Assembly: GCA_046292385.1 (NCBI GenBank)
Contig: JBKBRF010000008.1
Span: forward strand, 32,001-96,000
From: Armatimonadota bacterium
Lineage (GTDB): Bacteria; Armatimonadota; SYMT01
DNA length: 64,000 nt
Direction of reading: 5' to 3'
Within the stretch, counting starts at the first letter, position 1. Every line of letters starts with the position of its first letter. Below are positions 3,892 through 49,359 of the stretch, one piece after another. The notes below the pieces were generated by a model. That model ran no database searches and was not told the DNA's origin. It was given only the letters and a program-made list of their open reading frames with translations. The position numbers were made by a program, and so were the translations under genes.

Positions 3892-4492
3892 ACTTCTCAC
3901 CGGCGTTCCACCCCGTGCCCTCACGCGGCGGAGCGGCCCTCCCGCGTGGGTGGCCCACCCGCAGTCCTTTCACGCTCCGCCTTCGGCTCCGCTAGCGGAT
4001 TGCTCCGGGCGTGCGCTCCGGCAGCCTGCGCCCCGCGACCGAAGACAACGATTCCCGCATTGCGGTGGTTCACGGGCCGCCCCGCCGCGCTCAAGCAGCC
4101 ACCCCCGGGTGCCCGCAAGCGGGCACCCGGGGGTGGCCACAAGTGAACCCCTCCAGCCCTGCCGCCGGCAGCCCTTCCGGGCTCCCATGGATTTGCAGGA
4201 ACCTGACCGGTGGCGTCCGGATGTGCGGCCGCAGGCGGCACTGGAGGGCGGCATTTGTGACCACCCCTGGGAGCCAGGGGTGGTCGCTCGACGGCGGCCG
4301 ATTCAGCCCGTGAACCAGACTGCTGTAGCAGTAGAGCGCACTGGCGCGGGATGAGCGCAGCGGTACGCACTCCCGGAGAGGCCCGCTAACGGAGCGAAGC
4401 GGAGTGTGAAAGGGCCGCCGGAGGGCACTCGCCGCGGGAGGGCTGAAGCGGCCGACTAGGGCGTGGGGTCGGTCTCACGGGTTCAACGCTGC
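3892..4492 (+). repeat. ~600-bp nested palindromic element, copy A (complete)
   Basis: Outer arms 3905-4014 and 4367-4470 are imperfect inverted repeats; perfect 19-bp stem 4098-4137; second ACCACCCCTGG..CCAGGGGTGGT palindrome at 4260-4284. Confidence 0.92.
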
Positions 4493-4605
4493 ATGACGCT
4501 GAGCCACAGCAGGCTCCGGAGCAACTCCAGCAATTCACGCGTCCTGAGCCGCCCCGGTGGTAAGACAGGAGAAAGGGCCTGCCAGGAGGCGGATCGGAGC
4601 GGCGG

Positions 4606-5916
4606 ATGAAGCGGTTTCTACAGGGATTGATCTTCGGGGCGGCGGTCGGGGCGGCGGTAGTCCTTGCGGCGGCGCCGGCGTTCGCGCAGCGCCCATCTTC
4701 TCTACCGGAAGAGCGGCCCGGGGGCGCCCTGGAGCGCGCGGAGCGTCCGGAGCTGGCGGTGCGGGTGACGCCGGAGATGGAGCGCTACTCCTCCACCCGC
4801 TACGCCCTCTACTTCCTCCGCAGCTTCCTGGGACTCCTGATCCTGCTGCTCTTCCTGTCCACCGGAGCCAGCGCGCGGCTGCGGGACCTGGCGGAGCGGC
4901 GGACCGGCAACCCGGTGCTCCGGACCTTCATCTACTTCCCGCTCCTCTGGCTCGGCATCACGGTCTGCTCGCTGCCGCTCTCCTTCTACAGCTCCTACCT
5001 GCTGCCGCACCAGTACGGGCTCTCCAACCAGACCGCCGCCGGCTGGGTGCAGGACGCGCTAAAGGGCTACGCGCTCACCGCGGTGATCGGCTCGCCGGTG
5101 GTGGCTCTGCTCTACTGGTCGCTCCGCCGCAGCCCGCGGCTCTGGTGGGTCGGCTTCTGGGTCGCGTGCATCCCGCTGCTGATCGCGGCGGTGCTGCTGA
5201 CGCCGCTGGTGGTCGACCCGCTCTTCAACCGGTACCGCCCGCTGCCGGAGTCGCCGCTGCGGGAGAGCCTGCTCGAGATGGCGGAGCGTGCCGGAATCGA
5301 GAACAGCCGCGTCTTCGAGGTCGACGCCAGCACCCGCACGAAGGCGGTGAACGCCTACGTGACCGGAATCGGTGGCTCGGCGCGGATCGTGCTGTGGGAC
5401 ACGCTGCTGGAAAAGCTGGATGACGACGAGGTGGTCGCCGTGATGGCACACGAGATGGGGCACTACGTGGAGCGCCACGTGGTGATCGGGCTCGGTGCCA
5501 GCATCGTCGGCACGCTGCTCGTCTTCATTCTGGTCGACCGCGGCGGCCGGCGCATCCTGGCTCGCAGGGGCGACCGCTGGCGGGTGCGCGGGCTCGACGA
5601 TCTCGCCGGCTTTCCGCTGGTGCTGCTCCTCGTCTCCGCCATCAACTTCTTCGGCGCCCCGGTGGAGAACGCCGTCTCCCGGACGATCGAGCGCCGGGCG
5701 GACGACTTCTCGCTGCGCCTGACGGGGGACGGCCGCGCCGCCGCCTCCGCTTTCGTGAAGCTCAGCGAGGCGAATCTCTCCCACCCGGCGCCGCCCCCGT
5801 TCATCGAGCTCTGGCTCTTCAGCCACCCGCCGCTGAACGAGCGGATCGAGAAAGCCTTGAGTTATCGATCATCAGCCAGCGCGGGGCTCGGGGAGGCGCC
5901 AGAGGACCAGCCCTAG
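4606..5916 (+). CDS. M48 family (Ste24-like) membrane zinc metallopeptidase
   Basis: HExxH 'AHEMGH', 'NAYVTG', 'ERRADDF', 'SHPP'; multiple TM segments. Confidence 0.9.
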   Translation: MKRFLQGLIFGAAVGAAVVLAAAPAFAQRPSSLPEERPGGALERAERPELAVRVTPEMERYSSTRYALYFLRSFLGLLILLLFLSTGASARLRDLAERRTGNPVLRTFIYFPLLWLGITVCSLPLSFYSSYLLPHQYGLSNQTAAGWVQDALKGYALTAVIGSPVVALLYWSLRRSPRLWWVGFWVACIPLLIAAVLLTPLVVDPLFNRYRPLPESPLRESLLEMAERAGIENSRVFEVDASTRTKAVNAYVTGIGGSARIVLWDTLLEKLDDDEVVAVMAHEMGHYVERHVVIGLGASIVGTLLVFILVDRGGRRILARRGDRWRVRGLDDLAGFPLVLLLVSAINFFGAPVENAVSRTIERRADDFSLRLTGDGRAAASAFVKLSEANLSHPAPPPFIELWLFSHPPLNERIEKALSYRSSASAGLGEAPEDQP

Positions 5917-7113
5917 TGCCAGGGCGGTGCCGACCGCGCCCGCGGCGAAGATCGGGCTGAAGCCGACCGCGCTGATCATCGAGCCGGCGGCCAGCGGCAG
6001 CAGCACGCGGAACGGGCCGGAGAAGAGGTTGAAAACGGCGGTATAGGTGCCGCTGCGCTGCGGAGGGCAGAGCTCCAGCACGTAGTTCTGGGCGCAGACG
6101 GCCCAGCCCTGGAGCGCCAGCTCGTTCAGCAGGAAGACCGGGTGCATCCAGAGCGGGCCGTCGGCGCCCCACGCCAGGGAGACCGCTCCCAGCCCGGCGA
6201 AGGTGGCGAGCTGGATGGCGCGCAGGTTACCATACCGGTCGGCCAGCCAGCCGATCAGCAGGTAGGTGACCGCGCGCCCCACATTGAGCACCTGGTTGTA
6301 CTCCGCCACGGTCCGCTCGCTCGCCCCGAGGCCGGTGATGGCAAAGTCGGTATAGAACGCGCCGGCCATCTGGTTCAGCGCGAAGAGCGCGACGCCGATG
6401 CAGAGCCAGAGGATGCGGGAATCGCGCCGCACCAGGGAGAGCGCCTTGCGCACCGGCTCCGGGGGTGGGATCTCGTGCTCCTCCGGGATGACCTCCCGCA
6501 TCACGCCCAGCGGAAGCAGGGTGACGGTCTGGATCACGAAGGCCGCCAGGAAGCAGGCGGCGTAGCCGTTGGGGAAGCCCCAGGCGCCGATGAACCGCTC
6601 CGCCAGGACCGCGCAGCCGAGACCCAGCACTCCCGCCGCCGCCCCGCCGAGGCCGTAGAGGCGCCCGCGCCGCGCGGCGGGAATCGTCTTGGCGATCAGC
6701 TTGTAGTAGGCGGGCAGGTTGGCGCCCAGCGCCAGGTTCATCACGAGCCAGCAGCCGAAGAAGGCGAGGAGCAGCGCGGACCGGCTCTCGCTGAAGCCCC
6801 AGCAGAGCACCGCCAGCACCAGGAGCATCAGGCGCTCCAGCAGCCCGACGCCGAGCACCCAGTACCGGACGTTCCGCAGCCGTTCGATGCGGCTCGCCAC
6901 CAGCACGCCCGGCACCAGCCAGCCGAACAGCATCAGCGCCGGGATCATGCCGATGGCGACCGGGCTAGGGGTGAGCTGCTTGACGAACAGCGGCAGGATC
7001 GTGAGGTGGGAGATGAACGCGACCCCGGTGTTCCAGCCGCACGCGTCGATCAGCGCCGCGCCGAAGTTCCACCGCCGGTCGGCCCGCGTTTCCCGTGGAG
7101 AGTCCGGTTTCAG
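5872..7113 (-). CDS. MFS transporter (start uncertain; possibly CTG at 7113)
   Basis: About 12 hydrophobic segments and 'GWLADRYG' MFS motif; MFS-like TM1 sequence continues upstream of the ATG at 6948. Confidence 0.8.
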   Translation of the reverse strand: MKPDSPRETRADRRWNFGAALIDACGWNTGVAFISHLTILPLFVKQLTPSPVAIGMIPALMLFGWLVPGVLVASRIERLRNVRYWVLGVGLLERLMLLVLAVLCWGFSESRSALLLAFFGCWLVMNLALGANLPAYYKLIAKTIPAARRGRLYGLGGAAAGVLGLGCAVLAERFIGAWGFPNGYAACFLAAFVIQTVTLLPLGVMREVIPEEHEIPPPEPVRKALSLVRRDSRILWLCIGVALFALNQMAGAFYTDFAITGLGASERTVAEYNQVLNVGRAVTYLLIGWLADRYGNLRAIQLATFAGLGAVSLAWGADGPLWMHPVFLLNELALQGWAVCAQNYVLELCPPQRSGTYTAVFNLFSGPFRVLLPLAAGSMISAVGFSPIFAAGAVGTALALGLVLWRLPEPRAG

Positions 7114-7131
7114 GGGAGTGCCCGGTAAGCG

Positions 7132-8283
7132 CTAGACCGCCAGCCCGACGATGGCCGACCGGAACTCGACCACCAGCGTGCGGCCCACCAGGGTGAGGTC
7201 CGGCACCATCCGCCGGGCCCGCAGCTCCCACGCCGGCTTACCGGTGGCGCGGTCGAGCGCCAGCACCAGCCAGCGGCCCTCCGGCTCCGGCGTATTCACG
7301 CGCAGGTAGAGCCGCTCCGCGTCACCGTCCAGCCCGTGCACCTGGCCCACTTTTCGCTCCCAGCGCAGCTCGCCGGTGGCCGGATCGAGGGCGAGGAGGC
7401 GCCCGCTCCAGGTTTCCGCGAAGAGCAGGTCGCCCTGGACCCGCAGCTTGAAGATCCGCTCCTCCCCCTCCGGCTCCCGCTTCCAGAGGCGGTCTCCGGT
7501 GAGCGCGTCGACCGCGTAGGCGGTGCCGTCCGTGAAGTAGCAGAGCATGCCGTGCGACACGCCCGGCTCCTCCACGCTGCCGGTGTTCTCCAGCCGCCAG
7601 CGGACCTGGCCCGAGACCAGGTCGACCCCCATGGCGCCGGCCTCGTGGCCGGAGATCGGGAGGAGGTCGCCGTTTGCCTGGCCGACGACCATCGGCTGCC
7701 CCTCCGCAGAGAGCGACCACCGCCGCGCCCCGCCCGCGGTCGCGAAGCCCTGCACGACTGCTTGCTCCGGATCCGAGACCACCAGCAGGTCTCGCTCCGG
7801 GAAGGGATAGAACTCCGGCTCCCCCTCCAGCGGAGCGCGCCACTCCTGCCGGCCGTCCGCCCGCGAGAGCGCGAACATCGGTCCCGGCCGCCGCTGCGTG
7901 ATCGCGGCGTAGAGGTGGCGCGGGTCGATGCCCAGCGTGTTCACCCGTCCGCCCAGCTTCTGCGCCCAGGCGCGCCGGCCGGTCGCCAGCTCCAGCGCCT
8001 CCAGCTCCTGCCCGCGCGCCAGGCACGCCAGCTCCGCGTCGACCGCCACCTCGTCCGGCAGCGCGGGGGAAGGTGCCTCCCACCGCACGGCGCCGTCCGC
8101 CGCCTCCCGCACCAGCAGCCGCTCCTTCTCCATCAGCAGCACGGCCCCACTGGCGGGCAGGCTCTGGGCCCACACCTGGCGCGCGGCGTGCTCCCACGCC
8201 ACGTCCGGCTGGCCGCCGGGGCAGTCTCCCCAGGAGTATTCCGGCTCGGCGGGTGCTTCTCGGTCGGGGCGGTTCTTTGGCAT
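7132..8283 (-). CDS. PQQ-like (BamB-like) beta-propeller repeat protein
   Basis: Repeated 'ALDxATGxxRW' motifs. Confidence 0.82.
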   Translation of the reverse strand: MPKNRPDREAPAEPEYSWGDCPGGQPDVAWEHAARQVWAQSLPASGAVLLMEKERLLVREAADGAVRWEAPSPALPDEVAVDAELACLARGQELEALELATGRRAWAQKLGGRVNTLGIDPRHLYAAITQRRPGPMFALSRADGRQEWRAPLEGEPEFYPFPERDLLVVSDPEQAVVQGFATAGGARRWSLSAEGQPMVVGQANGDLLPISGHEAGAMGVDLVSGQVRWRLENTGSVEEPGVSHGMLCYFTDGTAYAVDALTGDRLWKREPEGEERIFKLRVQGDLLFAETWSGRLLALDPATGELRWERKVGQVHGLDGDAERLYLRVNTPEPEGRWLVLALDRATGKPAWELRARRMVPDLTLVGRTLVVEFRSAIVGLAV

Positions 8284-8520
8284 CTCGTTAGGGGTCTAGG
8301 TTCAGGGCAAACGGTCGAGCCTGCGGGGCGTACGGTGAACGTGCCGCGCGCTCTCCGGAGACCATCTTGCCTCAGCCGGTTCGGATTCGGCCAGGAACGT
8401 ACGCGAAAGCGGCTCCCGAGACGTCCAGGGGACGCTGGGAGCCGTAAAGAGACCGCACCCGGGCTTGCCTCGTCCCGCCGCTGCAAACTACGGGGCTAGA
8501 CGGCGTAGGACGCCGAGGCC

Positions 8521-10449
8521 TCAGTGGGCGGGGGCGTCCGGGATGTAGTCTTTGCTCATCCCCAGCTCTTCCGGCGCGTGGAGTCGGAGCATCAACGAGT
8601 CGACCCCCTTGGGGACCTCCGCGGCGGTCAGCGCGCTCACCAGCCACATCAAGCCCAGGGAAAGCGGCACGCCCCAGATCGCCGGCTGCTCCAGCAGCGT
8701 GCGGACGATCGGATCGGGAGCCCAGGCCAGGATCTTCTTGTCGATCAGCATCGTGGAGATGATCGCTCCCAGGCTGGCGAGGCCGCCGATCAGCATGCCG
8801 GCGGCGGCGCCCTTGGCCGTGAGCCCTCGCCACCAGGCGCCCAGCAGCAGCAGCGGGAAATAGCTGGCGGCGGCGATGGCGAACGCCCAGCCGACGAGCA
8901 TGGCGATGTCCCAGCTCTCCGCGACCATTCCCAGCAGCGTGGCCAGAATCCCGACCCCCACCGCCGAGATCTTGAACGCCTTCAGCCGGTCTTCCGGGGT
9001 GGCGCTCGGCCGCAGGATCGAGCCGTAGATGTCGTGCGCCATCGCGCTCGACATGGAGACCAGCAGGCCGCTGAAGGTCGACATGAACGCCGCGAACGCG
9101 CCCGCTACCGTCACGCCCTTCAGCACCGGGCCCCAGACGCCGCCCAGGATGGTCGGCAGCTCTACCACCACGGCATCGGTCTTGCCGTTGGCGTAGAGCT
9201 CCGGCATCAGGAAGCGGCCCATCGCGCCCCAGATCCCCGGGAAGATGTAGAAGACGCCGATCAGCACCATCACCCAGAGGGTGGTCCGCTTCGCCGCGCG
9301 CCCATCCGGATTGGTGTAGAAGCGGACCAGGATGTGCGGCAGCCCCGCCGTCCCGAACACCAGGCCCACGATCAGCGAGAAGGTGTAGAGCAGCGGATAC
9401 CCGTGCTTGCTGGTGAAGGCGCCGAAGGGACGTACCCACTCTTCGTTCGAGACGGTCCCGGCCACCGGCTCTCCTGCCAGGAACCGGACCTGCGCGGGCT
9501 CGGCAAACTCCAGCTTCGCGCCGGTTAACCGGCCGGCCAGCTCCGCGGGCTGGAGCTCCAGGCGGGTGCCGGCGGGCCAGAAGAGCTCCGCGCCGTTCGC
9601 CGCGGAGGGCGCCGACGACATGAAGTCGGCGATCGTCCACTCCCGGCCCCCCGGAATCGCCTTCACCGCCGGGGCGACGCTCCGGAGCCGCGTGTCGGTG
9701 GCGAGCTCCAGGACCACCGGCTCGGGCGGCAGCGTGAGGAAGTCTCCGGCCTTGAACGCGCGCGTCGCCTCCCGGGGGTAGACCGGCAGCGGCCGGTCCG
9801 AGCCGCCGCCGCCGGAGACGAACCGGTCGTACGGCCCGAAGTACGCCATCAGCACGAAGACCGGCGCCGCGATGGCGAACATCTTCAGCCAGTACTGGAA
9901 CGCCTGGACGAAGGTGATGCCCTTCATGCCGCCCAGCGCCACGTTGAAGGAGATGACCACGCCCACCAGCGCCACGCCGACCCAATAGGGCGTCCCCAGG
10001 ATGCTCGTCATCGCCACGCCAGCACCCTTCATCTGCGGCATCGTGTAGAAGAACCCGATGAACAGCACGAAGGTCACGGCGATCTTCCGGAACGAGGGGC
10101 TGGAGAAGCGCCCTTCCGCGAAGTCCGGGATCGTGTAGGCGCCGAAGCGGCGCAGCGGGCCGGCGATGAACAGCAGCAAGAAGAGGTATCCGGTGGCGTA
10201 GCCGACCGGATACCAGAGCACGTCGTAGCCGAACTTCATCACCAGCCCCGCCACGCCCATGAACGAGGCGGCGGAGAGGTACTCGCCGGAGATGGCGGAG
10301 GCGTTCCAGAACACGCTGACGGAGCGCCCTGCCACGAAGAAGTCGCTGGCAGAGCGGGAGATGCGCGTCGTGTAGATGCCCAGGCCGATCGTGGCCAGCA
10401 CCACGGCCGCCACCATCACCACCGGAATCCAGTCCAGGTTACCTGTCAT
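8521..10449 (-). CDS. Sodium:solute symporter, cation/acetate symporter ActP-like
   Basis: 'SGEYLSAASFMG', 'GTAGLPHILVRFYTNPD', 'AFAAFMSTFSG'; paired with an upstream DUF485 gene. Confidence 0.9.
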   Translation of the reverse strand: MTGNLDWIPVVMVAAVVLATIGLGIYTTRISRSASDFFVAGRSVSVFWNASAISGEYLSAASFMGVAGLVMKFGYDVLWYPVGYATGYLFLLLFIAGPLRRFGAYTIPDFAEGRFSSPSFRKIAVTFVLFIGFFYTMPQMKGAGVAMTSILGTPYWVGVALVGVVISFNVALGGMKGITFVQAFQYWLKMFAIAAPVFVLMAYFGPYDRFVSGGGGSDRPLPVYPREATRAFKAGDFLTLPPEPVVLELATDTRLRSVAPAVKAIPGGREWTIADFMSSAPSAANGAELFWPAGTRLELQPAELAGRLTGAKLEFAEPAQVRFLAGEPVAGTVSNEEWVRPFGAFTSKHGYPLLYTFSLIVGLVFGTAGLPHILVRFYTNPDGRAAKRTTLWVMVLIGVFYIFPGIWGAMGRFLMPELYANGKTDAVVVELPTILGGVWGPVLKGVTVAGAFAAFMSTFSGLLVSMSSAMAHDIYGSILRPSATPEDRLKAFKISAVGVGILATLLGMVAESWDIAMLVGWAFAIAAASYFPLLLLGAWWRGLTAKGAAAGMLIGGLASLGAIISTMLIDKKILAWAPDPIVRTLLEQPAIWGVPLSLGLMWLVSALTAAEVPKGVDSLMLRLHAPEELGMSKDYIPDAPAH

Positions 10450-10787: not shown

Positions 10788-10904
10788 GAATGAAGTCCGG
10801 TCCGCCGGCTCGGGCCGCGCGGAACACGGAAGTATTGGACAGGCACGCGCCGACCGCCTCCACCCGGTGCGGATGGGATGTCAGCGGAGATCCCTCCATC
10901 CCTC

Positions 10905-11348
10905 CGAGCGGCTCAAGCGACCACCCCCACCGCCCGCAAGCGGGCACCCGGGTGGTCACAGGTGAAACTCTCCAGCCTTGCCTCCGGCAGCGCTTCCGGG
11001 CTTCGCGAACCCCGATGCCCTGGGGGCACGAAGCCGGTCGTGCTGCACCGCCTGAAGGCAACCCGTCGGCGGCCGACCGTGCCCAGACCACAGGCGCCCG
11101 CCGGGTGCCAGTTGTGGCCACCCCTGGGCGGCAGGGGTGGTAGCTCGAAGGGTCGGGAGGCAGCCCGTGAGCTGCCCTATCGGCGCGGGTTACGCATCCT
11201 GGCGCGGGAAGAGCTTTTCGACGTCAGCTCCCGCAGCGGCCTGCTAACGGAGCGCAGCGGAGTGTGAAAAGGCCGCGGAGGGCCTTCGTCGCGGGAGGGC
11301 TGCCTCCCGGCACAAGGGCTCGGGGTCGGGTCGCGGGATCGACGCTGC
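10905..11348 (+). repeat. Nested palindromic element, copy B (left outer arm missing)
   Basis: GCTCAAGC-ACCACCCC site, core, CCACCCCTGG..CAGGGGTGG site, and a right arm nearly identical to the reverse complement of copies D and E. Confidence 0.9.
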
Positions 11349-11411
11349 CTCTCGACGAGAAGCAAAGACGCCCCACAACTAAGGGGTCCGCTGGAGTGAT
11401 TGGCCGCTTTC

Positions 11412-11462
11412 GCCTCGGACTAAAGTCGAGGCTACACGGAGCGAAGCCCGCCTTCGCGGGCT
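11412..11462 (-). repeat. GTAG-type REP-like hairpin unit inside a 127-bp insertion (11381-11507)
   Basis: Minus strand reads AGCCCGC-GAAG-GCGGGCT..GTAG-CCTCGAC-TTTA-GTCCGAGG. Confidence 0.65.
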
Positions 11463-11615
11463 CAGAACTCCCCGGGAAAACGTGTCGGTGACTTCCCGCA
11501 ACCCCTTTGGCCCCTGCCGTCTTGGGAGGTCCAAGCGCGCAATGGCCGACGGTAGAATCTGCGCATCCGGGCAAGAATCTCGGGGTGAGTAGCGCAGAAG
11601 CAGCTGGACACACCC

Positions 11616-13115
11616 CTAAACGAGAAGATCCCGCATCACCTCTCCGCTCTCCACGAGAGGGAGCGGCCGCTGCTGCGGGTCGAGGATCATGCTGTGCGGG
11701 TCGATGCCGAGGAGGTGGTAGATGGTAGCGAGGACGTCCTTCGGGGAGACGGGGCGCTCCTCCGGGAAGCCGCCCTGAGCGTCGGTCTTGCCGATCACGG
11801 CGCCTTCCTTGATCCCGGCGCCGGCGAAGAGGTTGCAGTAGGCGCCCGCCCAGTGGTCGCGGCCGCCCCCGCCCTGCGGGCCGAAGCCGTCGTAGCCCTT
11901 GTTGAACTTCGGCGTGCGGCCGTGCTCGCTCAGGATGCAGACCAGCGTCTCGTCCAGCAGCCCGCGCTGGTCCATGTCGTGCATCAGCGCGTTAAACGCC
12001 CGGTCGAAGCCGGGGCAGAGCTCGTTCTGCATCCGGTTCACCAGGTAGACGTGCGTGTCCCAGGCGGAGTTTCCGAGATTGTACTCGTCCCAGAAGACGG
12101 TCACCACCCGCGCGCCCGCTTCGATGAGGCGGCGCCCCGCGAGGGTCGCCTGGCCGAAGAGGGTCATCCCGTACTCTTCGCGGAGCTTCATCGGCTCCTG
12201 GTGGATATCCATCGCGTTCCGGAGCTTCTCCGAGGTGAGCAGGCTCATGGCGAGCTGCTGCGACCGGCTCCACGCCGCCGCCTCGTCCGAGTGCTCCAGC
12301 AGGCGCCGCTGCTCGTCGAACTGCTGCAGGATTCCGGCGCGGCGGCTCAGGCGGTCGAGGGTGAGGTCACGCGCGGTGCTGCCCGGCATGAAGTGGAACT
12401 TGGTGTCCGGCGAGATCCCGCCGTACGGGTTCTCCCGGCCCTGCCCGTACGGGTCCTCGCCGGTCGACTTCCCCTCCCAGCTTGCCTCCACCGGCGCCCA
12501 GCCGCTCCCGAGCCAGTGCGGCTGCGGACCCGGGCGGCGGAACCGGTGCGGCAGGATGATGTTGTTCGGCACCGGGGAATCGGCGAGGCCCTGCTTCCGG
12601 CGCGCTTCGGTGTCGAGGTAGTCGACCACCGACCCGAAGTAGGGCCAGTGGCGCGGGTCGCGGGTGTTCGTCTCGCGGGCCAGGTCGGTCGTCGCCATTC
12701 CGGTCAGCGCGTAGGAGACGCAGTGGATCGGGTACTCGTGGGTGACCGAGCGGACCGTCGCGACCCGGTGCATCCACTTCGCCATCTTCGGCAGGTGCTC
12801 GCAGATGTCGATGCTCGGGTTGGAGGTGCGGATCGGCTTGAACGGGCCGCGGATGTCCTCCGGCGCGTCCGGCTTCATGTCCCAGGTATCGACCTGACCC
12901 GGGGAGCCGTAGAGGAACAGGATCAGGACGTTCTTCGCCTTGCCGAAGCTGCGCCCGGCGCCCGCCGGCGCGGGAGCGGCCTGCGCTTCCTTGAGCTGGA
13001 GCACGTCCGCGAGGGTGAGGCCGTAGAGCGAAAGCGCCCCGGCCTGGATCAGGTCTCGCCGGGTGATCCCGTCACAGGCGCGCGCGCCATTTCCCAGAAT
13101 GCGAACTCTCGACAT
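11616..13115 (-). CDS. DUF1501 domain protein
   Basis: 'TRRDL..G', 'QVDTWDMKP', 'WDTH', 'EHGRTP', 'GRDHW' motifs. Confidence 0.9.
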   Translation of the reverse strand: MSRVRILGNGARACDGITRRDLIQAGALSLYGLTLADVLQLKEAQAAPAPAGAGRSFGKAKNVLILFLYGSPGQVDTWDMKPDAPEDIRGPFKPIRTSNPSIDICEHLPKMAKWMHRVATVRSVTHEYPIHCVSYALTGMATTDLARETNTRDPRHWPYFGSVVDYLDTEARRKQGLADSPVPNNIILPHRFRRPGPQPHWLGSGWAPVEASWEGKSTGEDPYGQGRENPYGGISPDTKFHFMPGSTARDLTLDRLSRRAGILQQFDEQRRLLEHSDEAAAWSRSQQLAMSLLTSEKLRNAMDIHQEPMKLREEYGMTLFGQATLAGRRLIEAGARVVTVFWDEYNLGNSAWDTHVYLVNRMQNELCPGFDRAFNALMHDMDQRGLLDETLVCILSEHGRTPKFNKGYDGFGPQGGGGRDHWAGAYCNLFAGAGIKEGAVIGKTDAQGGFPEERPVSPKDVLATIYHLLGIDPHSMILDPQQRPLPLVESGEVMRDLLV

Positions 13116-14467: not shown

Positions 14468-14750
14468 GACGGCGTCGGCACCGAGAGTCCGACCCCGTGC
14501 CCTAGTCGACCGATTCAGCCCTCCCGCGTCGAGGGCCCTCCGCGGCCTTTTCACGCTCCGGCTTCGCCTCCGCTAGCAGGCCGCTCCGGAAGTGCACCCC
14601 GTATTGCGCTTCCCGCGCCACTTCGTCCTACCGCCCCAAAAGCCGAGTTCACGCGCTGAATCGGTCGCCGTCGAGCAACCACCCCTGATACTCCAGGGGT
14701 GGTCACAACTGCCGCCCTCCGGGCCATCCTGCGGCTGCCCCTCCGGACGC
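14468..14750 (-). repeat. Nested palindromic element, copy C (right half only, fused to a REP-like unit)
   Basis: Right arm, ACCACCCCTG..CAGGGGTGGT site and partial core match copies A, F and H. Confidence 0.88.
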
Positions 14751-18994: not shown

Positions 18995-19356
18995 GAGAGG
19001 CGGTCTCCGGGAGCGAACGGGTGCGGCCGGGCGCCGAGTGCCCTTCGCTGCGGCGTTCACCGCGGACGGCTGGTTGACCTCCGAACAGAGGGCCATCTCA
19101 CGGTAAAGAGATCGGCGGCAGAATGAAGGGCGCGTAATCGGGCGCGGGTTCGACAGTCCCGTCCGGAGTCCGAGAGGGAACGCGGGAGGCTGCGGCGAAT
19201 CGAAGACCAGTCCGCTCCCTCGCCCGAAGCCCGCGTAAGCCTCGCGCGGACCTCCCGGCGCTGAATGACTTGCGCCGGATTGCGGGACGGACTCTAGATT
19301 TCGCATCGATTCGCCGGCACTGCCGCTCTGGCAGCATCCGATAGTAGGAGCGTTCC

Positions 19357-33006: not shown

Positions 33007-33121
33007 GGATGGTTGACCGGTGAGGCGGATCCGGCAGCGTCCGGAATGCGGCAACGGGCCGCGGCCTCCTCACCAGTGTAGCATCCCACGCCGGAAGTTC
33101 AGAGCCGGTCCGAGTCGGCCT

Positions 33122-33898: not shown

Positions 33899-33963
33899 CT
33901 TGTTCTCGAATAGCTGCTGATCCTGAGGGGCCGTCCGCCGCCCGCTCGCACACCGAGCCTATT

Positions 33964-35073: not shown

Positions 35074-35124
35074 GCCGCTCCGCCTCCGCCCTCGTCTTAA
35101 CCACGGATGGTGAGGCGCTCCGGC

Positions 35125-35235
35125 GGGGCCTCACCCCCAACCCCTCTCCTGCGAGGAGAGGGGAGCTCTCGGTGGGATGCCGCGGCCAAACCGGGTCTCC
35201 CAACCTGCAACCTGCCAAGTTGCCAACCTGAAACC
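35125..35235. repeat. CCTCACCCCC..CCCTCTCC..GGAGAGGG hairpin repeat plus a (CAACCTG)n array
   Basis: Same hairpin motif at 41721-41844 and 54341-54450; heptamers at 35200-35235. Confidence 0.75.
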
Positions 35236-35239
35236 GGGG

Positions 35240-38200
35240 CTACGCCGGCTGCGGCGCCCGCTGCTCCGCCTCCACCTGGGCCACCAGCGGGTCCGCCAGG
35301 GAGCAGGAGAGCACCTTGCTCACGCCGCGCTCCTCCATCGTCACGCCGTAGAGCGTGTCCGCGGCTTCCATCGTGCCGCGGTTGTGCGTCACCAGGATGA
35401 ACTGCGTCCGGTGCGCGAACTCCTTCAAGATCGAGGTGAAGCGCCCGACGTTGCTCTCGTCCAGCGGCGCGTCGACCTCGTCCATCACGCAGAACGGGCT
35501 CGGCCGCACCTTCATCAGCGCGAAGATCATCGCGCCGGCCGTCAGCGCCCGCTCCCCCCCGGAGAGGAGAAGCAGGTTCTGCTGCTTCTTCCCCGGCGGC
35601 TGCACGATCACGTCGATGCCGGTCTCCAGCACGTCGGCGGGGTCGGTGAGCCGCAGCTCAGTCGTGCCGCCTCCGAACAGCTTCTTAAACATCTCGTCGA
35701 ACGCGGCGGCGATCTCGCGGAAGGCGCGCAGGAAGGTGTCGCGGCTGGCGAGGTCGATCTCCCGGATGGCGGTCTCCAGCTTACCGCGCGCTTCTTCCAG
35801 GTCGGCGCGCTGCCCCGTGAGGAAGTCGAACCGCTCCCGCGCCTCCGAGAACTGCTCCACGGCGGCGGGGTTCACCGCGCCGAGCGCCCGGATCTGCCGC
35901 CGCAGGCGCGCGATCTCCGCCTCCGGATCGGAAGAGGTGGCAAGCACCGCCTCCGCCGCTGCCTGGTCCCACGCGGCGCGGAGGCGCTCCACGGTGACCG
36001 GCTCCGGCTCCGGCGGCGCCTCTTCCCCTTCGGCGAGCGGCTGTTCTTCCGCGGCGGCGGTCTCCGGCTGCTGGAAAGCCAGGACCGACTCGACCCACTG
36101 CTCGCCCAGGTGGCGGTACTGCGTGTCGAGGGCGGCCAGCTCCACGTCGGCCCGGTGGCAGCGCTCCATCAGCTCCCGCAGCCGGGCGTTGAGGTCCTGC
36201 GTGCGGGCGCGCGCCGAAGCCGCCTCTCCCGTCAGGCGCGTCCGCGTCGCCGCCAGCGTCTCCATCTGCGCCCGGGCGGCATTCACCGCCTCCTGCGCGT
36301 CCGCCGCCTCGCCGGCCAGGGTGCTGAACGAGAGCCGCCGCTGCTCGCTCTCGGCGGTGAGGGCGCCCTGCTCCTTGAGACGCTCCGCACGCTGGCGGTC
36401 GAGGAAGCCGCCCGCCTCCACGGCGCGCCGCGAGGCGGCGATCGCCCCCTGCAGCTTCTGCTCCTGCTCCGCCAGCCGGACCCGCAGCTCGGTCGCGGCG
36501 CGCTCCGCCTCCCGGGCTTCCAACTCCAGGCGGCCGACCTCCGTCCGCGCGGCGCTCACCGACTCTTCACTATCGGTCTGGTCGGTCGCGGCCGGCGCCT
36601 TCAGCTCCTCCTCGGCGGCGGCGAGCGACCGCGCCGCCGACTCCGCCTCCCGCTCCAGGCGCGCCACTTCCGCCTTCGCGCGCTCCAGGCGCCCCTGCGC
36701 ACGGCCGACGTCCTGCCCGCGCCGGTCCGCCTCCCTGGCCTGGGCGCGGTGCTCCACGCGGGCCGCTTCCGCGCGGCTCTCCCGCTCCCGCAGGACGCTC
36801 TGCAGCCGCTTCAGCTCGGCGTCGGCGGCGCGCACCGCCTCCCGCGCGTCCGCTGCCCGCTGCTCCAGCTCCGGCAGCTTGCCGCGGAGCGTCTCCAGCT
36901 CTCGCCGGCGCGCCAGCATCGCCGCGGCGGCGCCCTCCGCTCCGAGCGCTCCGCCCCCGACCGCGCCGTGCGCCGCCCGCCAGGAGCCGTCCCGCGCCAC
37001 CCAGAGGTCGGGAGCGTCGCCCCGCTCTTCCACGGCAGCGGAGGCGAGTGCTTCCGGCTCGCAGACGCGGACGCGGCCGAGCAGCAGCCGCGCCCAGGCC
37101 AGCGCCGGCCCCTCCCCCGTCACCTGCTCTCCCAGCGATGCCGGCAGCGGCGCCGCCGGGCAGAGCGGCTCTCCCGGCAGCAGCAGCGCCGCGAGCTTCT
37201 TCCCCTTGAGCCACCTGAGCGCCGCGGCAGCAGCCTCCGGCGAGTCGGCGAGCACCGCGTCGGCGTAGACCCCCAGCGCCGCCTCGACCGCCTTCTCCAG
37301 CCCGGCGGGGACCTGCAGCCGCTCCACCAGCAGCGACCACTCCCCGGCGACCTCCCGCCGGCGCGCGGCGGCGAGGAGCTGGCGGGCCCCGGCGGCGGCC
37401 CCCTCCCCGCGCTCCCCCAGCTCCGTCAGCGCCTGGAGACGGGCGCTGTGGCTGCTCAACTCCCCGGTGGTCCGGTCCAGCGTTCCGCGCGCGGCGGTGA
37501 GCGCCTGCTCGGCAGCGCGCGCCGCGTCCCGCTCGACCTTGATCTCGCCGGTCAGCGCCTCGGCCCGCGACAGGTGCTCCGCCGCCGCCTTCTGGAAACT
37601 CTCCCGTTCGAGCCGGATCCGCTCCAGCTCCGCCTCGGCGTCTTCCAGGCTCTCGGCGGCGCGCTTGCGGTCTGCCGCCAGGCTCTCCACCCGGCCGGCG
37701 AGCGACTTCGCCCGCGCCTCCAGCTCCGACTGCCTCCGCGCGCGCGCCAGCCACGCCTGCCTCAGCAGCTCGAGCTGTTCCGCCGCCGCCTGGTGGATGC
37801 GCGTCTTCTCCCGCGCTGCCCCCTGCGCGGCGATGAGCTGCTGGCGGAGCTGGTCGACCTCCCGCTTGAGCTCCGCCTCGTCTCGCGCCGTGTTCTCGGA
37901 GCGGCGGACCTGGTCCTCGATCCGGCCGGCCAGCTCGTCCAGCTCCTTCGCCAGCGTGCGGAGGCGGCGCTGCACCTCTCCGGCGCGCTCCTCCGCCCGT
38001 GCCTTCTCCGCTTCGGCGTCGGCCACTCGCTTGAGACCGTCGGTCTCCGCGCGGCGGAGCGCCTCCGCCTCCACCTCCAGCGCCTCGAGCTGCTTTCGGG
38101 TCTCCGCCTCCGCGGCCTGGCCGGCGGCAAGCTCCTCCTCCAGCCGCTTGCGCTCTCCGTGCAGCTCCTCCACGAGCTGCGCCAGCCCGCCGCGCTCGAT

Positions 38201-38914
38201 CTGGAACCGCCGCAGTTTCGCGCCGTACCAGGCGTTCTCCACCTCCAGCAAGCGCGCGGAAAGCTCCCGGAAGCGCTTCGCCGCCGCGGCCTGACGCTGG
38301 AGCGGCCCGAGCTGCGCCTCGATCTCGGCGACGATGTCGTTCACACGGAGCAGGTTCTGCTGCGTGTGCTCCAGCTTCCGCTCCGCCTCTTTCTTGCGGA
38401 CCCGGTACTTCTTGATCCCCGCCGCCTCTTCGAAGATCTCCCGGCGATCCTCCGCGCGGACGCTCAGGATCTGGTCGATCTCTCCCTGGTTCACCAGCGA
38501 GTAGGCGTCCCGACCCACCCCGGTATCGAGGAACAGCTCGTAGATGTCGCGCAGGCGGCACGGCACCTGGTTGATCCGGAACTCGCTCTCCCCGGAGCGG
38601 TAGAGCCGGCGGGTGACGGTGATTTCGGTGAAGTCGAGCGGCAGGGCGCGGTCGGAGTTATCCAGCGTGAGGGAGACCTCGGCCATGCCGAGCGGCCGGC
38701 GCCGGTCGTTGCCGGCGAAGATGACGTCCTGCGCCGAGCTGCCGCGCAGCTCCCGGACGTTGTTCTCGCCCAGCACCCAGAGGATGGCGTCCGAGATGTT
38801 GCTCTTGCCGGAGCCGTTCGGCCCCACCACGCAGGTGATGCCGGGGTTGAAGACGATCTGCGTCTTCTGGGCGAAGGTCTTGAACCCGTGGATGTCGAGC
38901 TGCTTGAGGTACAC
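35240..38914 (-). CDS. smc: Chromosome segregation protein SMC
   Basis: GTG start; Walker A 'GPNGSGKSN', coiled coils and hinge, 'LSGGE', 'DEVDAPLD'. Confidence 0.96.
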   Translation of the reverse strand: MYLKQLDIHGFKTFAQKTQIVFNPGITCVVGPNGSGKSNISDAILWVLGENNVRELRGSSAQDVIFAGNDRRRPLGMAEVSLTLDNSDRALPLDFTEITVTRRLYRSGESEFRINQVPCRLRDIYELFLDTGVGRDAYSLVNQGEIDQILSVRAEDRREIFEEAAGIKKYRVRKKEAERKLEHTQQNLLRVNDIVAEIEAQLGPLQRQAAAAKRFRELSARLLEVENAWYGAKLRRFQIERGGLAQLVEELHGERKRLEEELAAGQAAEAETRKQLEALEVEAEALRRAETDGLKRVADAEAEKARAEERAGEVQRRLRTLAKELDELAGRIEDQVRRSENTARDEAELKREVDQLRQQLIAAQGAAREKTRIHQAAAEQLELLRQAWLARARRQSELEARAKSLAGRVESLAADRKRAAESLEDAEAELERIRLERESFQKAAAEHLSRAEALTGEIKVERDAARAAEQALTAARGTLDRTTGELSSHSARLQALTELGERGEGAAAGARQLLAAARRREVAGEWSLLVERLQVPAGLEKAVEAALGVYADAVLADSPEAAAAALRWLKGKKLAALLLPGEPLCPAAPLPASLGEQVTGEGPALAWARLLLGRVRVCEPEALASAAVEERGDAPDLWVARDGSWRAAHGAVGGGALGAEGAAAAMLARRRELETLRGKLPELEQRAADAREAVRAADAELKRLQSVLRERESRAEAARVEHRAQAREADRRGQDVGRAQGRLERAKAEVARLEREAESAARSLAAAEEELKAPAATDQTDSEESVSAARTEVGRLELEAREAERAATELRVRLAEQEQKLQGAIAASRRAVEAGGFLDRQRAERLKEQGALTAESEQRRLSFSTLAGEAADAQEAVNAARAQMETLAATRTRLTGEAASARARTQDLNARLRELMERCHRADVELAALDTQYRHLGEQWVESVLAFQQPETAAAEEQPLAEGEEAPPEPEPVTVERLRAAWDQAAAEAVLATSSDPEAEIARLRRQIRALGAVNPAAVEQFSEARERFDFLTGQRADLEEARGKLETAIREIDLASRDTFLRAFREIAAAFDEMFKKLFGGGTTELRLTDPADVLETGIDVIVQPPGKKQQNLLLLSGGERALTAGAMIFALMKVRPSPFCVMDEVDAPLDESNVGRFTSILKEFAHRTQFILVTHNRGTMEAADTLYGVTMEERGVSKVLSCSLADPLVAQVEAEQRAPQPA

Positions 38915-39142
38915 GTGGGAAACCGGGCGAGGGGTACCGCTGGCGCGGGGTCGGTGGGTTTTCCATTCTAGCCGGTGGGAGGGCTGGGCGGAACCCATGG
39001 AGGGATTGTCGGCGGGCTCCAGGGAGTGGCTGTATGACGGGTGAGAGATTCGCGCTGGGAGTGATGCAGCGTTGGAACCGCGGGACCGCCCTCTTGCGAT
39101 AGTCGAGGGACTCCTTGTCCGGTTCGTGCACTACCATCGTGG

Positions 39143-39723
39143 GCAGCGTTGGAACCGCGGGACCGACCCCGAGCCCTAGTCGTCCGCTTCAGCCCTCCCG
39201 CGACGTGTGCCCTCCGCCGGCCCTTTCACACTCCGCTTCGCTCCGTTAGCGGGCCGCTCCGGGTGTTCAGCCTGGCATGCTCTTCCCGCGACTCCGCGCG
39301 CTACCGTGACAGAGGCCCAGTTCACGGGCTGAATCGGCCGCCGTCGAGCTACCGCCCCTGACACCCAGGGGCGGTCACAAAGGGCGTCCTCCGGCAGAGC
39401 CTACGGCTCCGCCTCCGAACGCCACTGGATAGGCCTTCGCTCGCGCTACCGAAGGAGCCTGGAGGCGCTGCCGGAGGCAGCGGCGGAAGGCTCCACCTGT
39501 GGGCACCCCTGGAGAGGGGTGGCTGCTTGAGCCCGGCGGAGTGGCCCGTGAGTCGTTGTATCGAAGAAGGCGCAGCGCCCGAACGCGGCGCGCAGGTCCT
39601 CGCCGCGCACGCCCGGACCAGCCCGTTAGCGCCGGAGGCGCGTGGGAGGGCTGAGGGAGGGCCAACCACGCGGGAGGGCCGGTCCGCCGGGTGAGGGCAC
39701 GGGGTGAAACCTCGGGAAGAAGC
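39143..39723 (-). repeat. Nested palindromic element, copy G (complete)
   Basis: All modules present; palindrome variant ACCGCCCCTG..CAGGGGCGGT carries a compensatory change. Confidence 0.92.
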
Positions 39724-39883
39724 GCTTCTCGTGAAGCGGAAGAACACCCCGGAGAAGGCCTCCCACCTCCCCCGCCGAAGTAGTCGATGGCGGCACGCAC
39801 GTTTTCGCCTAAGCAGGAGCCTGCCTGCTCGCCACAATCTAGGTCGGCACGCGCCGGGGCGTGCCGGTTGCCGGAGAGCCGCG

Positions 39884-40957
39884 ATGGCCCTGTTCCTGCA
39901 GATCCTGGGAATCCTGTTCCTCGTCCTGGTGCTGGTGGTGGTGGGAGGCTTCTTCCTGCTGCGCAGCAAGTTCCGCAAGGCGATGTCTGAACTGGTGGCG
40001 CAGGCCGAGGAGATGAAGTACGGGATCACCCCCACCCGCATCCACCTGCGCCGGCGGGACGCCGTGGCGTGGCAGAATCCGGAGGCGGCGGAATCGTACT
40101 CCAGCGCGCTCCTGGCCCTGGGATTCGAGGACGCGGGCAGCTACGACATCGAGGAGCTCGACTTCGTCCGCCTGCGCGGCTTCGCCCACCCGGGGGAGTC
40201 GGTCTACGCCGCCGTCTACGAGCACGAGAAGGCGGGCACGTGGTTCGACCTCGTCAGCTTCTACCAGGACGGCACCAGCGCCACCTACAGCAACGCGCCG
40301 CGCCTGGCGCAGGGGATGGACCAGCGGCCGGGGCATTCCAAGACGTTCGACAACGGCGCCGACCTGCAGACGCTGTTCCAGCGGATGCTGGCGGAGCGCC
40401 CCGGCGGCGCCCTCTCCCCCGCCACGACCTCCGGGTTCGCGAACGCGCTGGAGCGGGCCTACGCGGACCACATGGACTGGCGCCACGCCCGCGGCCCTTC
40501 CGAGGACGAGATCCGGTTCGTCGCCGCCGAGATGGGAGAAGAGCCCTCCGACGAGCAGCTCGCCGAGGTGCGGGAGCAGCTGGAGCTGCAGTCGCTCGCC
40601 GGTCTGGACGAGAGCCTGCGGGAGCGGTTTCTGGAGCAGTCGAGCCTCTCCGCCGCAGAGTGGGAAGCCGTGCGGGAGCGCGTGGTGATCGTCCACGACC
40701 GCCTCAAGCCGGAGATGCTCGCCGAGCGTTACACCGAATGGGTCAACATGTGCGGCGAGTACGCGGAAGAGGAGGACGAGCGGGAAGAACAGGACGACCC
40801 GGAGTACCAGAAGGCGCTCGCCGCCGCCCGCGTCTCCGAGCCCCGCGCCGCCTTCGCCGCCCTGAACGAGCAGCTCCCGGAAGAGAAGCGGTTCCGCCTC
40901 CTCGGCACCGTGACCTACCCCCTCCCCGCAGCCGTCTACGTCGCTCCGGAGGGATAG
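39884..40957 (+). CDS. Membrane-anchored hypothetical protein
   Basis: N-terminal TM helix; GGAGAG Shine-Dalgarno motif; strong coding bias. Confidence 0.75.
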   Translation: MALFLQILGILFLVLVLVVVGGFFLLRSKFRKAMSELVAQAEEMKYGITPTRIHLRRRDAVAWQNPEAAESYSSALLALGFEDAGSYDIEELDFVRLRGFAHPGESVYAAVYEHEKAGTWFDLVSFYQDGTSATYSNAPRLAQGMDQRPGHSKTFDNGADLQTLFQRMLAERPGGALSPATTSGFANALERAYADHMDWRHARGPSEDEIRFVAAEMGEEPSDEQLAEVREQLELQSLAGLDESLRERFLEQSSLSAAEWEAVRERVVIVHDRLKPEMLAERYTEWVNMCGEYAEEEDEREEQDDPEYQKALAAARVSEPRAAFAALNEQLPEEKRFRLLGTVTYPLPAAVYVAPEG

Positions 40958-47229: not shown

Positions 47230-48425
47230 GGCATGCTCTCCCGTACGGCCGGGGCGCGGTGCCCGCGGAGTCGCTCCGCCACGCCGAGCGGCAGCAGCGC
47301 GGCCGGCTTGCTCTTTCGCGTGACCCAGAGCTGCAGCGCGGCGCGCGCGAAGGCGTAGCTCTTCAGCCGCCAGCGCGGCGCCACGAGCAGCACAAACGCC
47401 AGCATCCCGCTGAGCGTGGGCGGGTAGAGCGCCAGGTAGCGGATGGCGCGCGTGAACATCGTCCGCTCCGCCTTGTACACCTCGTCGCCGCTCATGAAGT
47501 CGTATTCCCGCCGGCCGCTCTCCCACGCGCGCTGGATGGAGAGGCAGTCGAGCACGCCCCCGGGCGAGAACTTGCGGTAGTCCTCGTCGTAGGCGCCCTG
47601 GTAGAGCCAGATCCGCTCCGGCGTGAGGAAGTTGATCTCGAAGGCGACCGGCTGGCCGTCCATCCGGGCGATCCAGAGCTCCATCTCCTCGCCGCCGCCG
47701 AGCGCCAGGAGCGCCCGACGCAGCAGCTCCTGCCCCTCGCCCGGCTGGAACCGCGCCACGCCTTCGCGTCCCTTCCACGAGCGCGCCTCGATCGCCGCCA
47801 CCTCCTCCACGCGCGCCGCCGCCTCCGCGCCGACGTAGCGCTCCACCGTGCCGCCCTCCTTCAGCCACTTGCGGCCGGCCTTCTGCATCCGCTTCAACCA
47901 GCCGGGGCCGCGGGCGCAGAGCGCGGTCCAGTCGGCGTCCATGGCGGTGTACGGAGCGGTAGTCCCCTCCACCCCCGCGGAGCGGAGGCCCTTCGGCGCG
48001 GGGACGCGCGTCAGCTCCGAGTAGCCGTCGCCAAGCTGCCGGAGCACCGCGAGGTCCCATTCCCCGCGGCGGCGCTGAAGCTCGTCCAGCAGCAGCCGCT
48101 CCGCCTCGGGGCAGTCCGCCGCAAAGAGGAAGCCGAGGTAGTCCGAGCGGCCGTCGCCGATGAATCTCAGCACGCGGAAGCCGAGCTGGCGCTCCCGGCG
48201 CAGCGGCGCCACGCCGACCAGCTCCCCGCCGCGCCGGGCGGTGAGCACGTACGGCTCGCAGCCGGCGCAGAGCTGCTCCCAGCAGATCTCGGTCCAGTCG
48301 AAGCTAAGGAATGGGTTGCGGGGAGCGCTCCGAGCGTAGAGCGCTCCCCATTCTTCACGCAGCGCCCGGAGCTCGCCGGGTGTGCGGAGACATTCGATGG
48401 TCGTTCCGGAGTTGTCCAGGGACAT
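47226..48425 (-). CDS. CelD/BcsL-like GNAT acetyltransferase
   Basis: 'NPFLS.DW', 'LVGVAPL', 'SDYLG', 'SPGGVL', 'DFMSGDEVYK'. Confidence 0.85.
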   Translation of the reverse strand: MSLDNSGTTIECLRTPGELRALREEWGALYARSAPRNPFLSFDWTEICWEQLCAGCEPYVLTARRGGELVGVAPLRRERQLGFRVLRFIGDGRSDYLGFLFAADCPEAERLLLDELQRRRGEWDLAVLRQLGDGYSELTRVPAPKGLRSAGVEGTTAPYTAMDADWTALCARGPGWLKRMQKAGRKWLKEGGTVERYVGAEAAARVEEVAAIEARSWKGREGVARFQPGEGQELLRRALLALGGGEEMELWIARMDGQPVAFEINFLTPERIWLYQGAYDEDYRKFSPGGVLDCLSIQRAWESGRREYDFMSGDEVYKAERTMFTRAIRYLALYPPTLSGMLAFVLLVAPRWRLKSYAFARAALQLWVTRKSKPAALLPLGVAERLRGHRAPAVRESMP

Positions 48426-48753
48426 GGCTTGCTTTTATTGGGAGGCCGGCCGCAGCCGGGCCTGTTGCTTGAGTCTCTAGCGCGGACTTTCAGGCGGCTC
48501 CATCGGGCGTCTGACGCCGGAGCCCGGGGCCCGTCGATCCTGCATCCGGCCGATACTACCCCGGCGTCTGGATCTCAAACCCTTCCCCGGGAACGGAGCG
48601 GGCGCTCTTGCCGGGAGCGGTTCCCTTGCGAGCGCCGGGAGGGCTTGCGGTTTAGGTGGGGGCGTGCCGGGTAGAAGGGAGTGGCCGGCCGGTTCGCGGC
48701 TGGGTTGCAATCCAGCGTGTGAAGGCGAGGATGACCTCATCTTGCAGGAAGCG

Positions 48754-49359
48754 GCATCTCTTCGAAGTTCCACCCCGTGCCCTCACCGGGGGGAGCGGCC
48801 CTCCCGCGTGTTTGGCCCTCCCTCAGCCCTTTCACGCTCCGGCTGCGCCTCCGCTAGCGGGCTGGTCCGGGCGTGCTCTTCGCCAGGCTGTGCTCCGCGT
48901 TCGCAGGCTGCGGTGTCTCCATCACGGCGACTCACGGGCCGCTCCCCCCGGCTCAAGCAACCACCCCTCGCCAGGGGTGGTCACAAGGGGAGCCCTCCGC
49001 CGCTGCCTTCGGCCGCGCCTCCGTGCTCCTTTGGACTGGCTGGCTGCGTCGTGACTGGCTCGGTAGTCCAGAACTCGGACGTCCAGAGGGGCAGCCGCAG
49101 GCTGGACCGGAGGACGGCACCTGTGACCACCCCTGGGCGCCAGGGGTGGTCGCTCGACGGCGGCCGGTTCAGCCCGTTAACCCGGGTTTTGGTGAGATGG
49201 GGGGCCGTGGCGCGGGAAGAGCTTCACGCGGCGCACTCCCGGAGCGGCCTGCTAGCGGAGGCGAAGCCGGAGCGTGAAAAGGCCGCGGAGGGCTCTCGCC
49301 GCGGGAGGGCTGAACCGACCGACTAGGGCGCGGGGTCGGTCCGGCGGTGCCGACGCCGC
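48754..49359 (+). repeat. Nested palindromic element, copy H (complete, with an extra inverted terminus at 49388-49420)
   Basis: All modules present; perfect 16-bp arm stem 48786-48801/48936-48951. Confidence 0.92.

Follow-up and report, generated by a model that had tools for sequence, protein, structure and literature searches.

A candidate family of REPIN-like structured repeats with linkers of fixed length in an Armatimonadota bacterium

Why should a repeat keep the length of a segment while most of its sequence changes? The question is raised by an imperfect palindrome of ~580 nt that a repeat search and an eight-copy alignment find eight times (copies A to H) in 64,000 nucleotides of an Armatimonadota genome (GenBank assembly GCA_046292385.1, contig JBKBRF010000008.1, positions 32,001 to 96,000). 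We call this whole stretch the window and give coordinates within it unless a contig or locus is named. It has a G+C content of 69-70% and is part of contig C8 of an assembly of 7.04 Mb in 91 contigs that is 98% complete. The original prediction, made from the sequence of the window, was that two spacers of the palindrome are invariant in length and divergent in sequence, owing to a molecular ruler, to substitution-biased diversification or to acquired or guide-like segments. We find that the length constraint is real and extends across the genome and beyond it. The best explanation, to which we assign a probability of roughly 0.55, is that the palindrome belongs to an undescribed family of structured non-coding extragenic repeats, akin to the repetitive extragenic palindromic (REP) doublets forming hairpins (REPINs) and the bacterial interspersed mosaic elements (BIMEs), in which the length of the linkers is fixed by the fold.

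Spacer lengths and the repeat unit

The exact pattern GGGCGTGC-N(50-60)-TCACGGG occurs five times in the window, where shuffles lead one to expect 0.01, and a sixth copy (F, where the anchor reads TTACGGG) is recovered when one anchor mismatch is allowed. The left spacer is 55 nt long in all six full copies (4015-4069, 21388-21442, 24254-24308, 28122-28176, 39552-39606 and 48877-48931). The right spacer is 53 nt long in copies A (4314-4366), F (28425-28477), G (39269-39321) and H (49180-49232) and 54 nt long in copies B (11171-11224), D (21077-21130) and E (23942-23995); for copy C, with anchors that deviate at one base, counting by hand in alignment A3 gives 53 nt (~14596-14648, minus strand). 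The lengths predicted for both spacers are thus confirmed. What needs correction is the picture of two exceptional segments, as almost every segment between the conserved blocks of the element is fixed in length.

Two units of ~280 nt, joined head to head, make up the ~580-nt element; they belong to two subtypes, L and R. A profile of the full element retrieves ~25 full copies and many more half copies, so the half is the basic unit. A hidden Markov model (HMM) of the unit has 150 matches in the genome, among which 129 score above 100 bits and 117 are near-full units that could be aligned. These are about 265-300 nt long, with at least six helices; 57 are L-type, with a 3' end in GGGGTGGA..., 58 are R-type, ending in GGGGTCGG..., and two are untyped. 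Past the motif GGGGT, the unit runs into a terminal hairpin and a purine-rich tail. The pairing of the units follows a strict rule: all 27 pairs less than 250 nt apart are in (-)(+) orientation, with the 5' ends facing each other, and none is in any of the other three orientations. Whenever both sides could be typed, the pair consists of one L and one R unit (20/20). Across the genome, no (-)...(+) pair of units is separated by 250-3000 nt, and hence at that scale there are no two arms with a gene between them.

When read in the orientation of the unit, the spacer consists of a variable segment (V1), a conserved core carrying CGCGGG (CGCGGGAAGAGC in R units, a 13-nt variant in L units) and a second variable segment (V2). 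The genome-wide length distribution, a check that came with the original prediction, is narrow rather than broad. V1 measures 30-33 nt in 117/117 units: it is 32 nt in 50 of the 57 L-type units, and among the 58 R-type units 30 nt in 13, 31 nt in 30 and 32 nt in 15. V2 is about 12-15 nt long overall and exactly 15 nt in 110/117 units. Two other segments between blocks are 14 and 5 nt long, each in 115/117 units. Length varies only at two hairpin tips (1-19 nt and 5-11 nt) and at the centre of the doublet, apart from one 21-nt hairpin insert in a unit on contig C46. The sequence of the spacers is as divergent as had been claimed: the mean pairwise p-distance is 0.56 in V1 and 0.50 in V2, whereas the scaffold has 0.17. 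V1 is not wholly free: its 12th base is G in 115/115 typed units and several further positions are semi-conserved.

The length of V1 is also kept outside this genome. In two other genera, where V1 is unrelated in sequence, it is 31-33 nt in 17/18 units as counted by hand in their alignment, and it is 31-32 nt in 5/5 diverged units from metagenome loci (alignment A3). The rule on length is therefore older than the expansion of the family in this genome.

Fold of the unit and diversity of its linkers

The strand of each unit that folds is the one ending in ...AGGGCNCGGGGT. The fold comprises two hairpins, one at the 5' end and a second one (ACCACCCCTGG/CCAGGGGTGGT), a long-range helix of 15 bp that closes a domain of ~190 nt, a nested arm of three helices and a terminal hairpin at the 3' end. 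The spacer leads, as one strand, from the closing helix to the nested arm. Mutual information over all pairs of columns reveals Watson-Crick covarying pairs inside single units. The fold was tested on 49 sequences (14 units of the window, 30 from other contigs and five metagenome relatives), in which RNAalifold finds 35 pairs in seven helices, with double changes in 17 pairs; in the long-range helix, 11 of 15 pairs changed on both sides. Over the 35 pairs (1708 cells), 96.6% of the cells are paired against 81.0% in shuffles (0/500 shuffles as high), with a covariation score of 0.456 against 0.165. When the partner column is slid by 1-3 positions, only 30-50% of the cells are paired. The copies are paralogues of one family, and the shuffles thus overstate the significance; more weight belongs to the slid controls and to the several types of pair seen at each column. 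Within a doublet, the L and R units differ in the covarying helices, which means that the conserved fold is that of each arm and not that of a hairpin spanning the doublet.

Unit F_R (28396-28582, plus strand; first row of alignment A3) illustrates the core of the fold, as obtained from RNAalifold, from the pair counts and from a covariance model (R1) of 187 positions and 35 pairs. An outer helix of 5 bp is followed by the 15-bp long-range helix (columns 11-25 with 213-227 of A3), within which lie, in order, V1 (31 nt), the CGCGGGAAGAGC core, V2 and the nested arm (columns 94-96/196-198, 102-106/185-189 and 111-113/178-180).

The fold has a strand. Among the 1708 cells, 166 are G:U and 10 are A:C, whereas the composition of the scaffold (G 0.45, C 0.29, A 0.16, T 0.10) leads one to expect about equal numbers, which assigns the fold to the strand ending in GGGGT. 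Two wobble pairs are nearly fixed, one being U:G in 48/49 sequences and the other G:U in 35 and A:U in 12 of 49. This bears on the possibility that the conserved blocks are binding sites for proteins on duplex DNA, with spacers that hold them in helical phase. The many short invariant blocks at set mutual distances would fit such an arrangement, but Watson-Crick covariation between distant columns and an excess of G:U over A:C of 166 to 10 have no meaning on duplex DNA, and spacers of 53 and 54 nt coexist on the right side, as do V1 lengths of 30, 31 and 32 nt in R-type units. We regard it as very unlikely. Of the molecular ruler that had been proposed, the constraint on length stands (narrow across the genome, kept across genera, with tips that do vary), while a distance between sites on duplex DNA fits less well than the geometry of a fold.

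What, then, do the linkers contribute to the fold? The columns of V1 do not covary with any other column by mutual information, and the real V1 or V2 does not stabilise the fold more than shuffled versions: comparisons of whole units give the real sequence the lower energy in 15/40 cases with shuffled V1 and in 19/40 with shuffled V2. The core together with its own V1 folds no better than shuffles. A hairpin formed by V1 itself was rejected (z -0.17 against shuffles), and so was pairing between the left and right V1 of a doublet, which are dissimilar in the orientation of the unit (judged by eye, uncounted).

These results are consistent with a model in which the spacer is an unpaired junction strand of a conserved single-strand fold, and the constraint on its length would be geometric. 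Linkers that lack conserved base-pairing would need to do no more than span set points of the fold, which would place their length under selection and leave most of their sequence free. The fold would probably be recognised by a protein on a single strand, either of DNA during copying or of RNA. A protein that reads the fold is plausible. The maintenance of the fold by compensation, the restriction of indels to the tips and the fixed length of the linkers together mark a molecule that is recognised by its three-dimensional shape, so this little-studied phylum probably has a dedicated binding protein or enzyme still to be discovered.

Could equal lengths simply reflect too little time for indels to accumulate in a neutrally decaying miniature inverted-repeat transposable element (MITE)? 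Indels are indeed rare throughout. In 19 independent close pairs of units (scaffold distance below 0.05), we count three gap cells for 82 substitutions in the scaffold and four for 132 in V1. Yet V1 is near saturation (0.56) and still 30-33 nt long in every unit, the hairpin tips do vary in length, and the helices keep their pairing by compensatory changes. The same length of V1 in other genera and in metagenomes, with unrelated sequences, already contradicts neutral decay, which we consider the least credible of the alternatives.

The close pairs also inform on how the linkers diversify. Differences per site amount to 0.029 in the scaffold, ~0.10 in the variable halves of helices, 0.221 in V1 and 0.344 in V2, a contrast that points to selection on the scaffold once a unit has been duplicated. 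The changes in V1 (70 transitions and 62 transversions) show no bias specific to A. The 117 units carry 59 classes of V1 and 44 classes of V2, and one class of V2 is found with up to nine classes of V1. Some pairs of units are alike in V1 (0.06) and in the scaffold (0.013-0.020) and unrelated in V2 (0.50-0.58). Judged from these sequences, the V1 and V2 segments appear to be inherited and recombined, not created afresh in each copy. The absence of substitution bias and the reassortment of variants do not support the substitution-biased diversification that had been suggested. The features of a diversity-generating retroelement are likewise missing, with no reverse transcriptase (RVT_1) found in this genome and no adenine-biased substitution.

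Variable segments of fixed length on a common scaffold also recall programmable guides in the style of bridge RNA, omega RNA or CRISPR (clustered regularly interspaced short palindromic repeats) RNA, used by some effector. There are two such segments per unit, both diverse, apparently unpaired and reassorting independently, and V1 is ~32 nt long. Moreover, in the genome of another genus (G005, C3:826000-841000, L132), 4/15 units adjoin two CRISPR arrays (6110-8460 and 10985-12847; repeats of 29 nt, spacers of 32 nt) and a diverged cas1-like open reading frame (ORF; 9223-10233, minus strand). In the genome of the window, however, no unit lies within 11 kb of the two CRISPR arrays (contigs C28 and C58; repeat of 37 nt), which makes the adjacency in G005 probably a coincidence. 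Matches of V1 elsewhere remain at the level of controls: the mean best match in the repeat-masked genome scores 29.2 bits against 28.9 for shuffled sequences, comparisons with other V1 segments in reverse complement score 8.21 against 8.18, and identity or complementarity to the flanks of the unit itself does not exceed that to the flanks of other units. Doublet F, which covers two of the 117 V1 segments, has no match in phage and plasmid collections, and the scaffold motif has 0 matches in viral contigs. The invariant G and the semi-conserved positions make V1 unlike captured foreign sequence. Finally, searches of this genome found neither TnpB nor Piwi nor a reverse transcriptase, its two IS110 genes are on contigs that lack units, and no effector gene adjoins the eight copies of the window or those of G005 and G006, whose neighbours are of unrelated families, the cas1-like ORF of G005 aside. 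The idea of acquired or guide-like segments is thus not supported, and we hold guide-like loops to be improbable. The same low credence goes to its most specific form, built on the analogy with bridge RNA, in which ~130 copies of one RNA scaffold would present V1 (~32 nt) and V2 (~12-15 nt) as a two-part address for an effector. Were this true, the genome would hold a large library of addresses, and targets outside the genome would explain why none was found.

Genomic distribution, copies in the window and candidate partners

The units behave as extragenic repeats. The midpoint of 123/129 units is outside genes, as called by a crude method based on G+C content at third codon positions (GC3). 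Their orientation is random relative to neighbouring genes: the gene on the 3' side is co-oriented with 60 units and convergent with 69, and for solo units the gene on the 5' side divides 36 to 37. Units in pairs are the better conserved (174.8 bits, against 165.3 for solo units; p 0.004), and either strand of doublet A can form a single long hairpin of -382 kcal/mol (z about -12, and -12.7 for one fold). No gene family recurs beside the units, as the flanks of the eight window copies and of the copies in G005 and in a further genome, G006, hold unrelated Pfam families. The picture that best fits is an expansion to ~130 units in this genome, in which the copies would diversify by point mutation and by recombination between them.

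The 79 solo units tend to be on the locally C-rich strand (55 against 24 within 5 kb on either side, p 0.0006), a bias that fades to 41 against 31 at 60 kb. The units being G-rich, decayed partner arms alongside may be its source. Eight consecutive units on contig C40 are on one strand.

Are the units instead host RNA genes, i.e., a large paralogous family of structured non-coding RNAs in which each copy is functional? They match no known family: we found no description of this repeat in the literature searched and none in Rfam 15, against which the whole window has 0 matches at the gathering threshold and doublet F, at E<=5, only two matches at chance level. Coding potential was rejected, as conserved TGA/TAG in fixed blocks were judged to close all forward frames and CTA one reverse frame (consensus read by eye); an origin from tRNA was rejected too, since ARAGORN finds no tRNA in the window. 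Host RNA genes would account for the strand-specific fold, with its excess of G:U over A:C and its two nearly fixed wobble pairs, for the lack of near-identical copies and for the persistence of low copy numbers in sister genera. In close pairs, the divergence of the scaffold is 8-12 times lower than that of the linkers, an imbalance implying that individual copies are under selection. Set against this, we found no sigma-70-like promoter and no terminator within the element at a doublet, the units are oriented at random to their neighbours, their number varies ~100-fold between genera and no Rfam family matches. Heterotypic head-to-head pairing and mosaic recombination are habits of repeat elements. 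We therefore consider host RNA genes a possibility to be kept in mind, though a doubtful one.

Several findings weigh against the extragenic repeat family that we favour. Strong conservation of the scaffold in old, diverged copies is equally expected from a function at the level of the host. Copies are not recent: the best non-self matches have ~80-90% identity, with no near-identical copies, and recent transposition is thus not evident. Solo units outnumber doublets, unlike in most MITE families. Neither a target-site duplication nor a defined terminus was found: in 22 doublets, a test for 5-bp direct repeats gave no pair of offsets shared by at least four of them. To these add the missing TnpB and reverse transcriptase (in an assembly 98% complete) and the lack of a mobilising enzyme linked to the units. 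The genome has two clear and three weaker matches to Y1 transposases of the REP-associated tyrosine transposase (RAYT) type; those on contigs C51 and C22 have short REP hairpins of their own. Model R1 finds no unit at E<=0.6 in 13 loci, of which 12 surround Y1 genes from this bacterial family and one surrounds the RAYT-like ORF of contig C40, and Y1 genes also occur in genomes without units.

The surroundings of these genes are as follows. The Y1 gene at C51:25920-26261 is bracketed by inverted short hairpins GCGAGGGGTT..AACCCCTCGC (L004:4843-4867 and 5389-5414), an arrangement that looks like a classical REP-RAYT pair and is unrelated to the large units. Another, at C22:55627-55965, is flanked by different GC-rich hairpins, CCGGGGG..CCCCCGG (L005: ~5034-5060 and ~5449-5476). 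The third RAYT-like ORF is at the end of contig C40 (L003:4261-4791) and encodes 176 aa with HxH and Y..Q.NP motifs.

The units of the window are placed by nhmmer matches on contig C8 (coordinates minus 32000). Three doublets have the L unit on the left: doublet A (3904-4478), supported also by its spacer lengths and hairpin fold, has an L-type unit at 3904-4187 (-) and an R-type unit at 4215-4478 (+); doublet F (28009-28595), for which spacer lengths agree, has them at 28009-28293 (-) and 28331-28595 (+); and doublet H (48763-49344), again with concordant spacer lengths and with subtypes assigned from alignments A1 and A3, at 48763-49031 (-) and 49084-49344 (+). Doublet G (39155-39717; nhmmer and spacer lengths) is arranged the other way, with an R-type unit at 39155-39415 (-) and an L-type unit at 39452-39717 (+). 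G and F have the R half and the centre in common at 92% identity (pair I6), with a different V1 on the L side. Doublets D (20963-21555; R-type 20963-21221 (-), L-type 21291-21555 (+)) and E (23827-24415; R-type 23827-24094 (-), L-type 24165-24415 (+)) were found both as repeat families (D15 and D16 for D) and by nhmmer. They form a long subtype with extra conserved extensions and an insert at the centre, and the similarity between them extends past the units of D, to ~20911 and ~21630. Two copies are incomplete: copy B (10903-11339) has a full R-type unit at 11078-11339 (+) and a remnant of the L side at 10903-11004 (-, positions 5-84 of the model), and copy C (14483-14748, -) is a solo R-type unit (nhmmer and alignment A3). 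An isolated extra L-type 3' end (GAGGGCACGGGGTGGAACCCC...) at 49384-49433, ~50 nt past doublet H, may be the remnant of a further unit.

In assemblies of four DNA runs over 20001-40000, where contigs break at the repeats, pieces of other copies cross-map and no contig bridges an element, no insertion polymorphism was found. Contigs of three runs (X1, X2 and X3) join 20894 to 23766, skipping 2871 nt, exactly as far as the left edge of doublet D lies from the near-identical left edge of doublet E. The join may reflect a genuine deletion variant that arose when copies recombined, or a cross-join of the assembly at the repeat. Elsewhere in the window, the minus-strand ORF at 16133-19369 contains six to seven tandem copies of a 201/213-nt repeat (16810-18175, 60-89% identity), which would correspond to a protein-internal repeat of ~67 residues.

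Relatives of the units are rare. BLAST of one unit against 40 relatives gives a single weak match, in G005. A long sequence pattern has 0 matches in assembled genome contigs, and a short one has 68, of which nhmmer recognises none as a unit. Among 150 genomes sampled from the phylum, R1 matches only G005 and G006 (2/150). With 150 candidates scored per genome, it counts 15 units in G005, eight in G006, one in G004 and 0 in G001 and G002. Copy number thus varies ~100-fold between genera, from 1-15 units in sister genera to ~130 here. Units of G005 also form (-)(+) pairs. In G006, there are recent local tandem duplicates 428-629 nt apart that are 95-97% identical (L131:3670-4911 and L130:9068-9995), which are not seen in the genome of the window. 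The family supplies, in R1, a ready covariance model.

Comparison with known repeat families

Bertels and Rainey describe REPINs as extragenic repeats whose inverted doublets are over-represented, better conserved than singlets and able to form hairpins. The present units resemble them in being extragenic and placed at random, in the excess and better conservation of inverted doublets, in the long hairpin that a doublet can form and in their confinement to one lineage. The differences are in the unit, the arms and the partner. REPs are palindromes of some 20-35 nt, whereas the unit described here has ~280 nt and a multi-helix junction. The two arms are always of different subtypes, and the conserved fold is within each arm and not between arms. 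No RAYT is flanked by these units, and the RAYT-like genes of this genome have their own short REPs. We take the family to work like a REPIN or BIME without being a member, as two defining features of REPINs fail, the short palindromic unit and the RAYT flanked by the same repeat.

The likeness to the BIMEs of enterobacteria is in the mosaic of modules, here the L and R units, the optional centre insert and the optional extensions of doublets D and E, whose variants reassort. The modules of the present family are an order of magnitude larger and individually structured. The ends of IS200/IS605 insertion sequences and of their gene-less derivatives offer a third comparison, as they share strand-specific folded ends that are read (here, would be read) in single-stranded form, two ends that are unlike each other and no target-site duplication found. 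In IS200/IS605, both end hairpins are on the same strand, whereas the arms described here fold on opposite strands, and no tnpA/tnpB partner was found. Bacterial interspersed repeats are usually seen as short hairpins; in this family, a strand-specific fold of ~280 nt and many helices is kept in more than 100 diverged copies.

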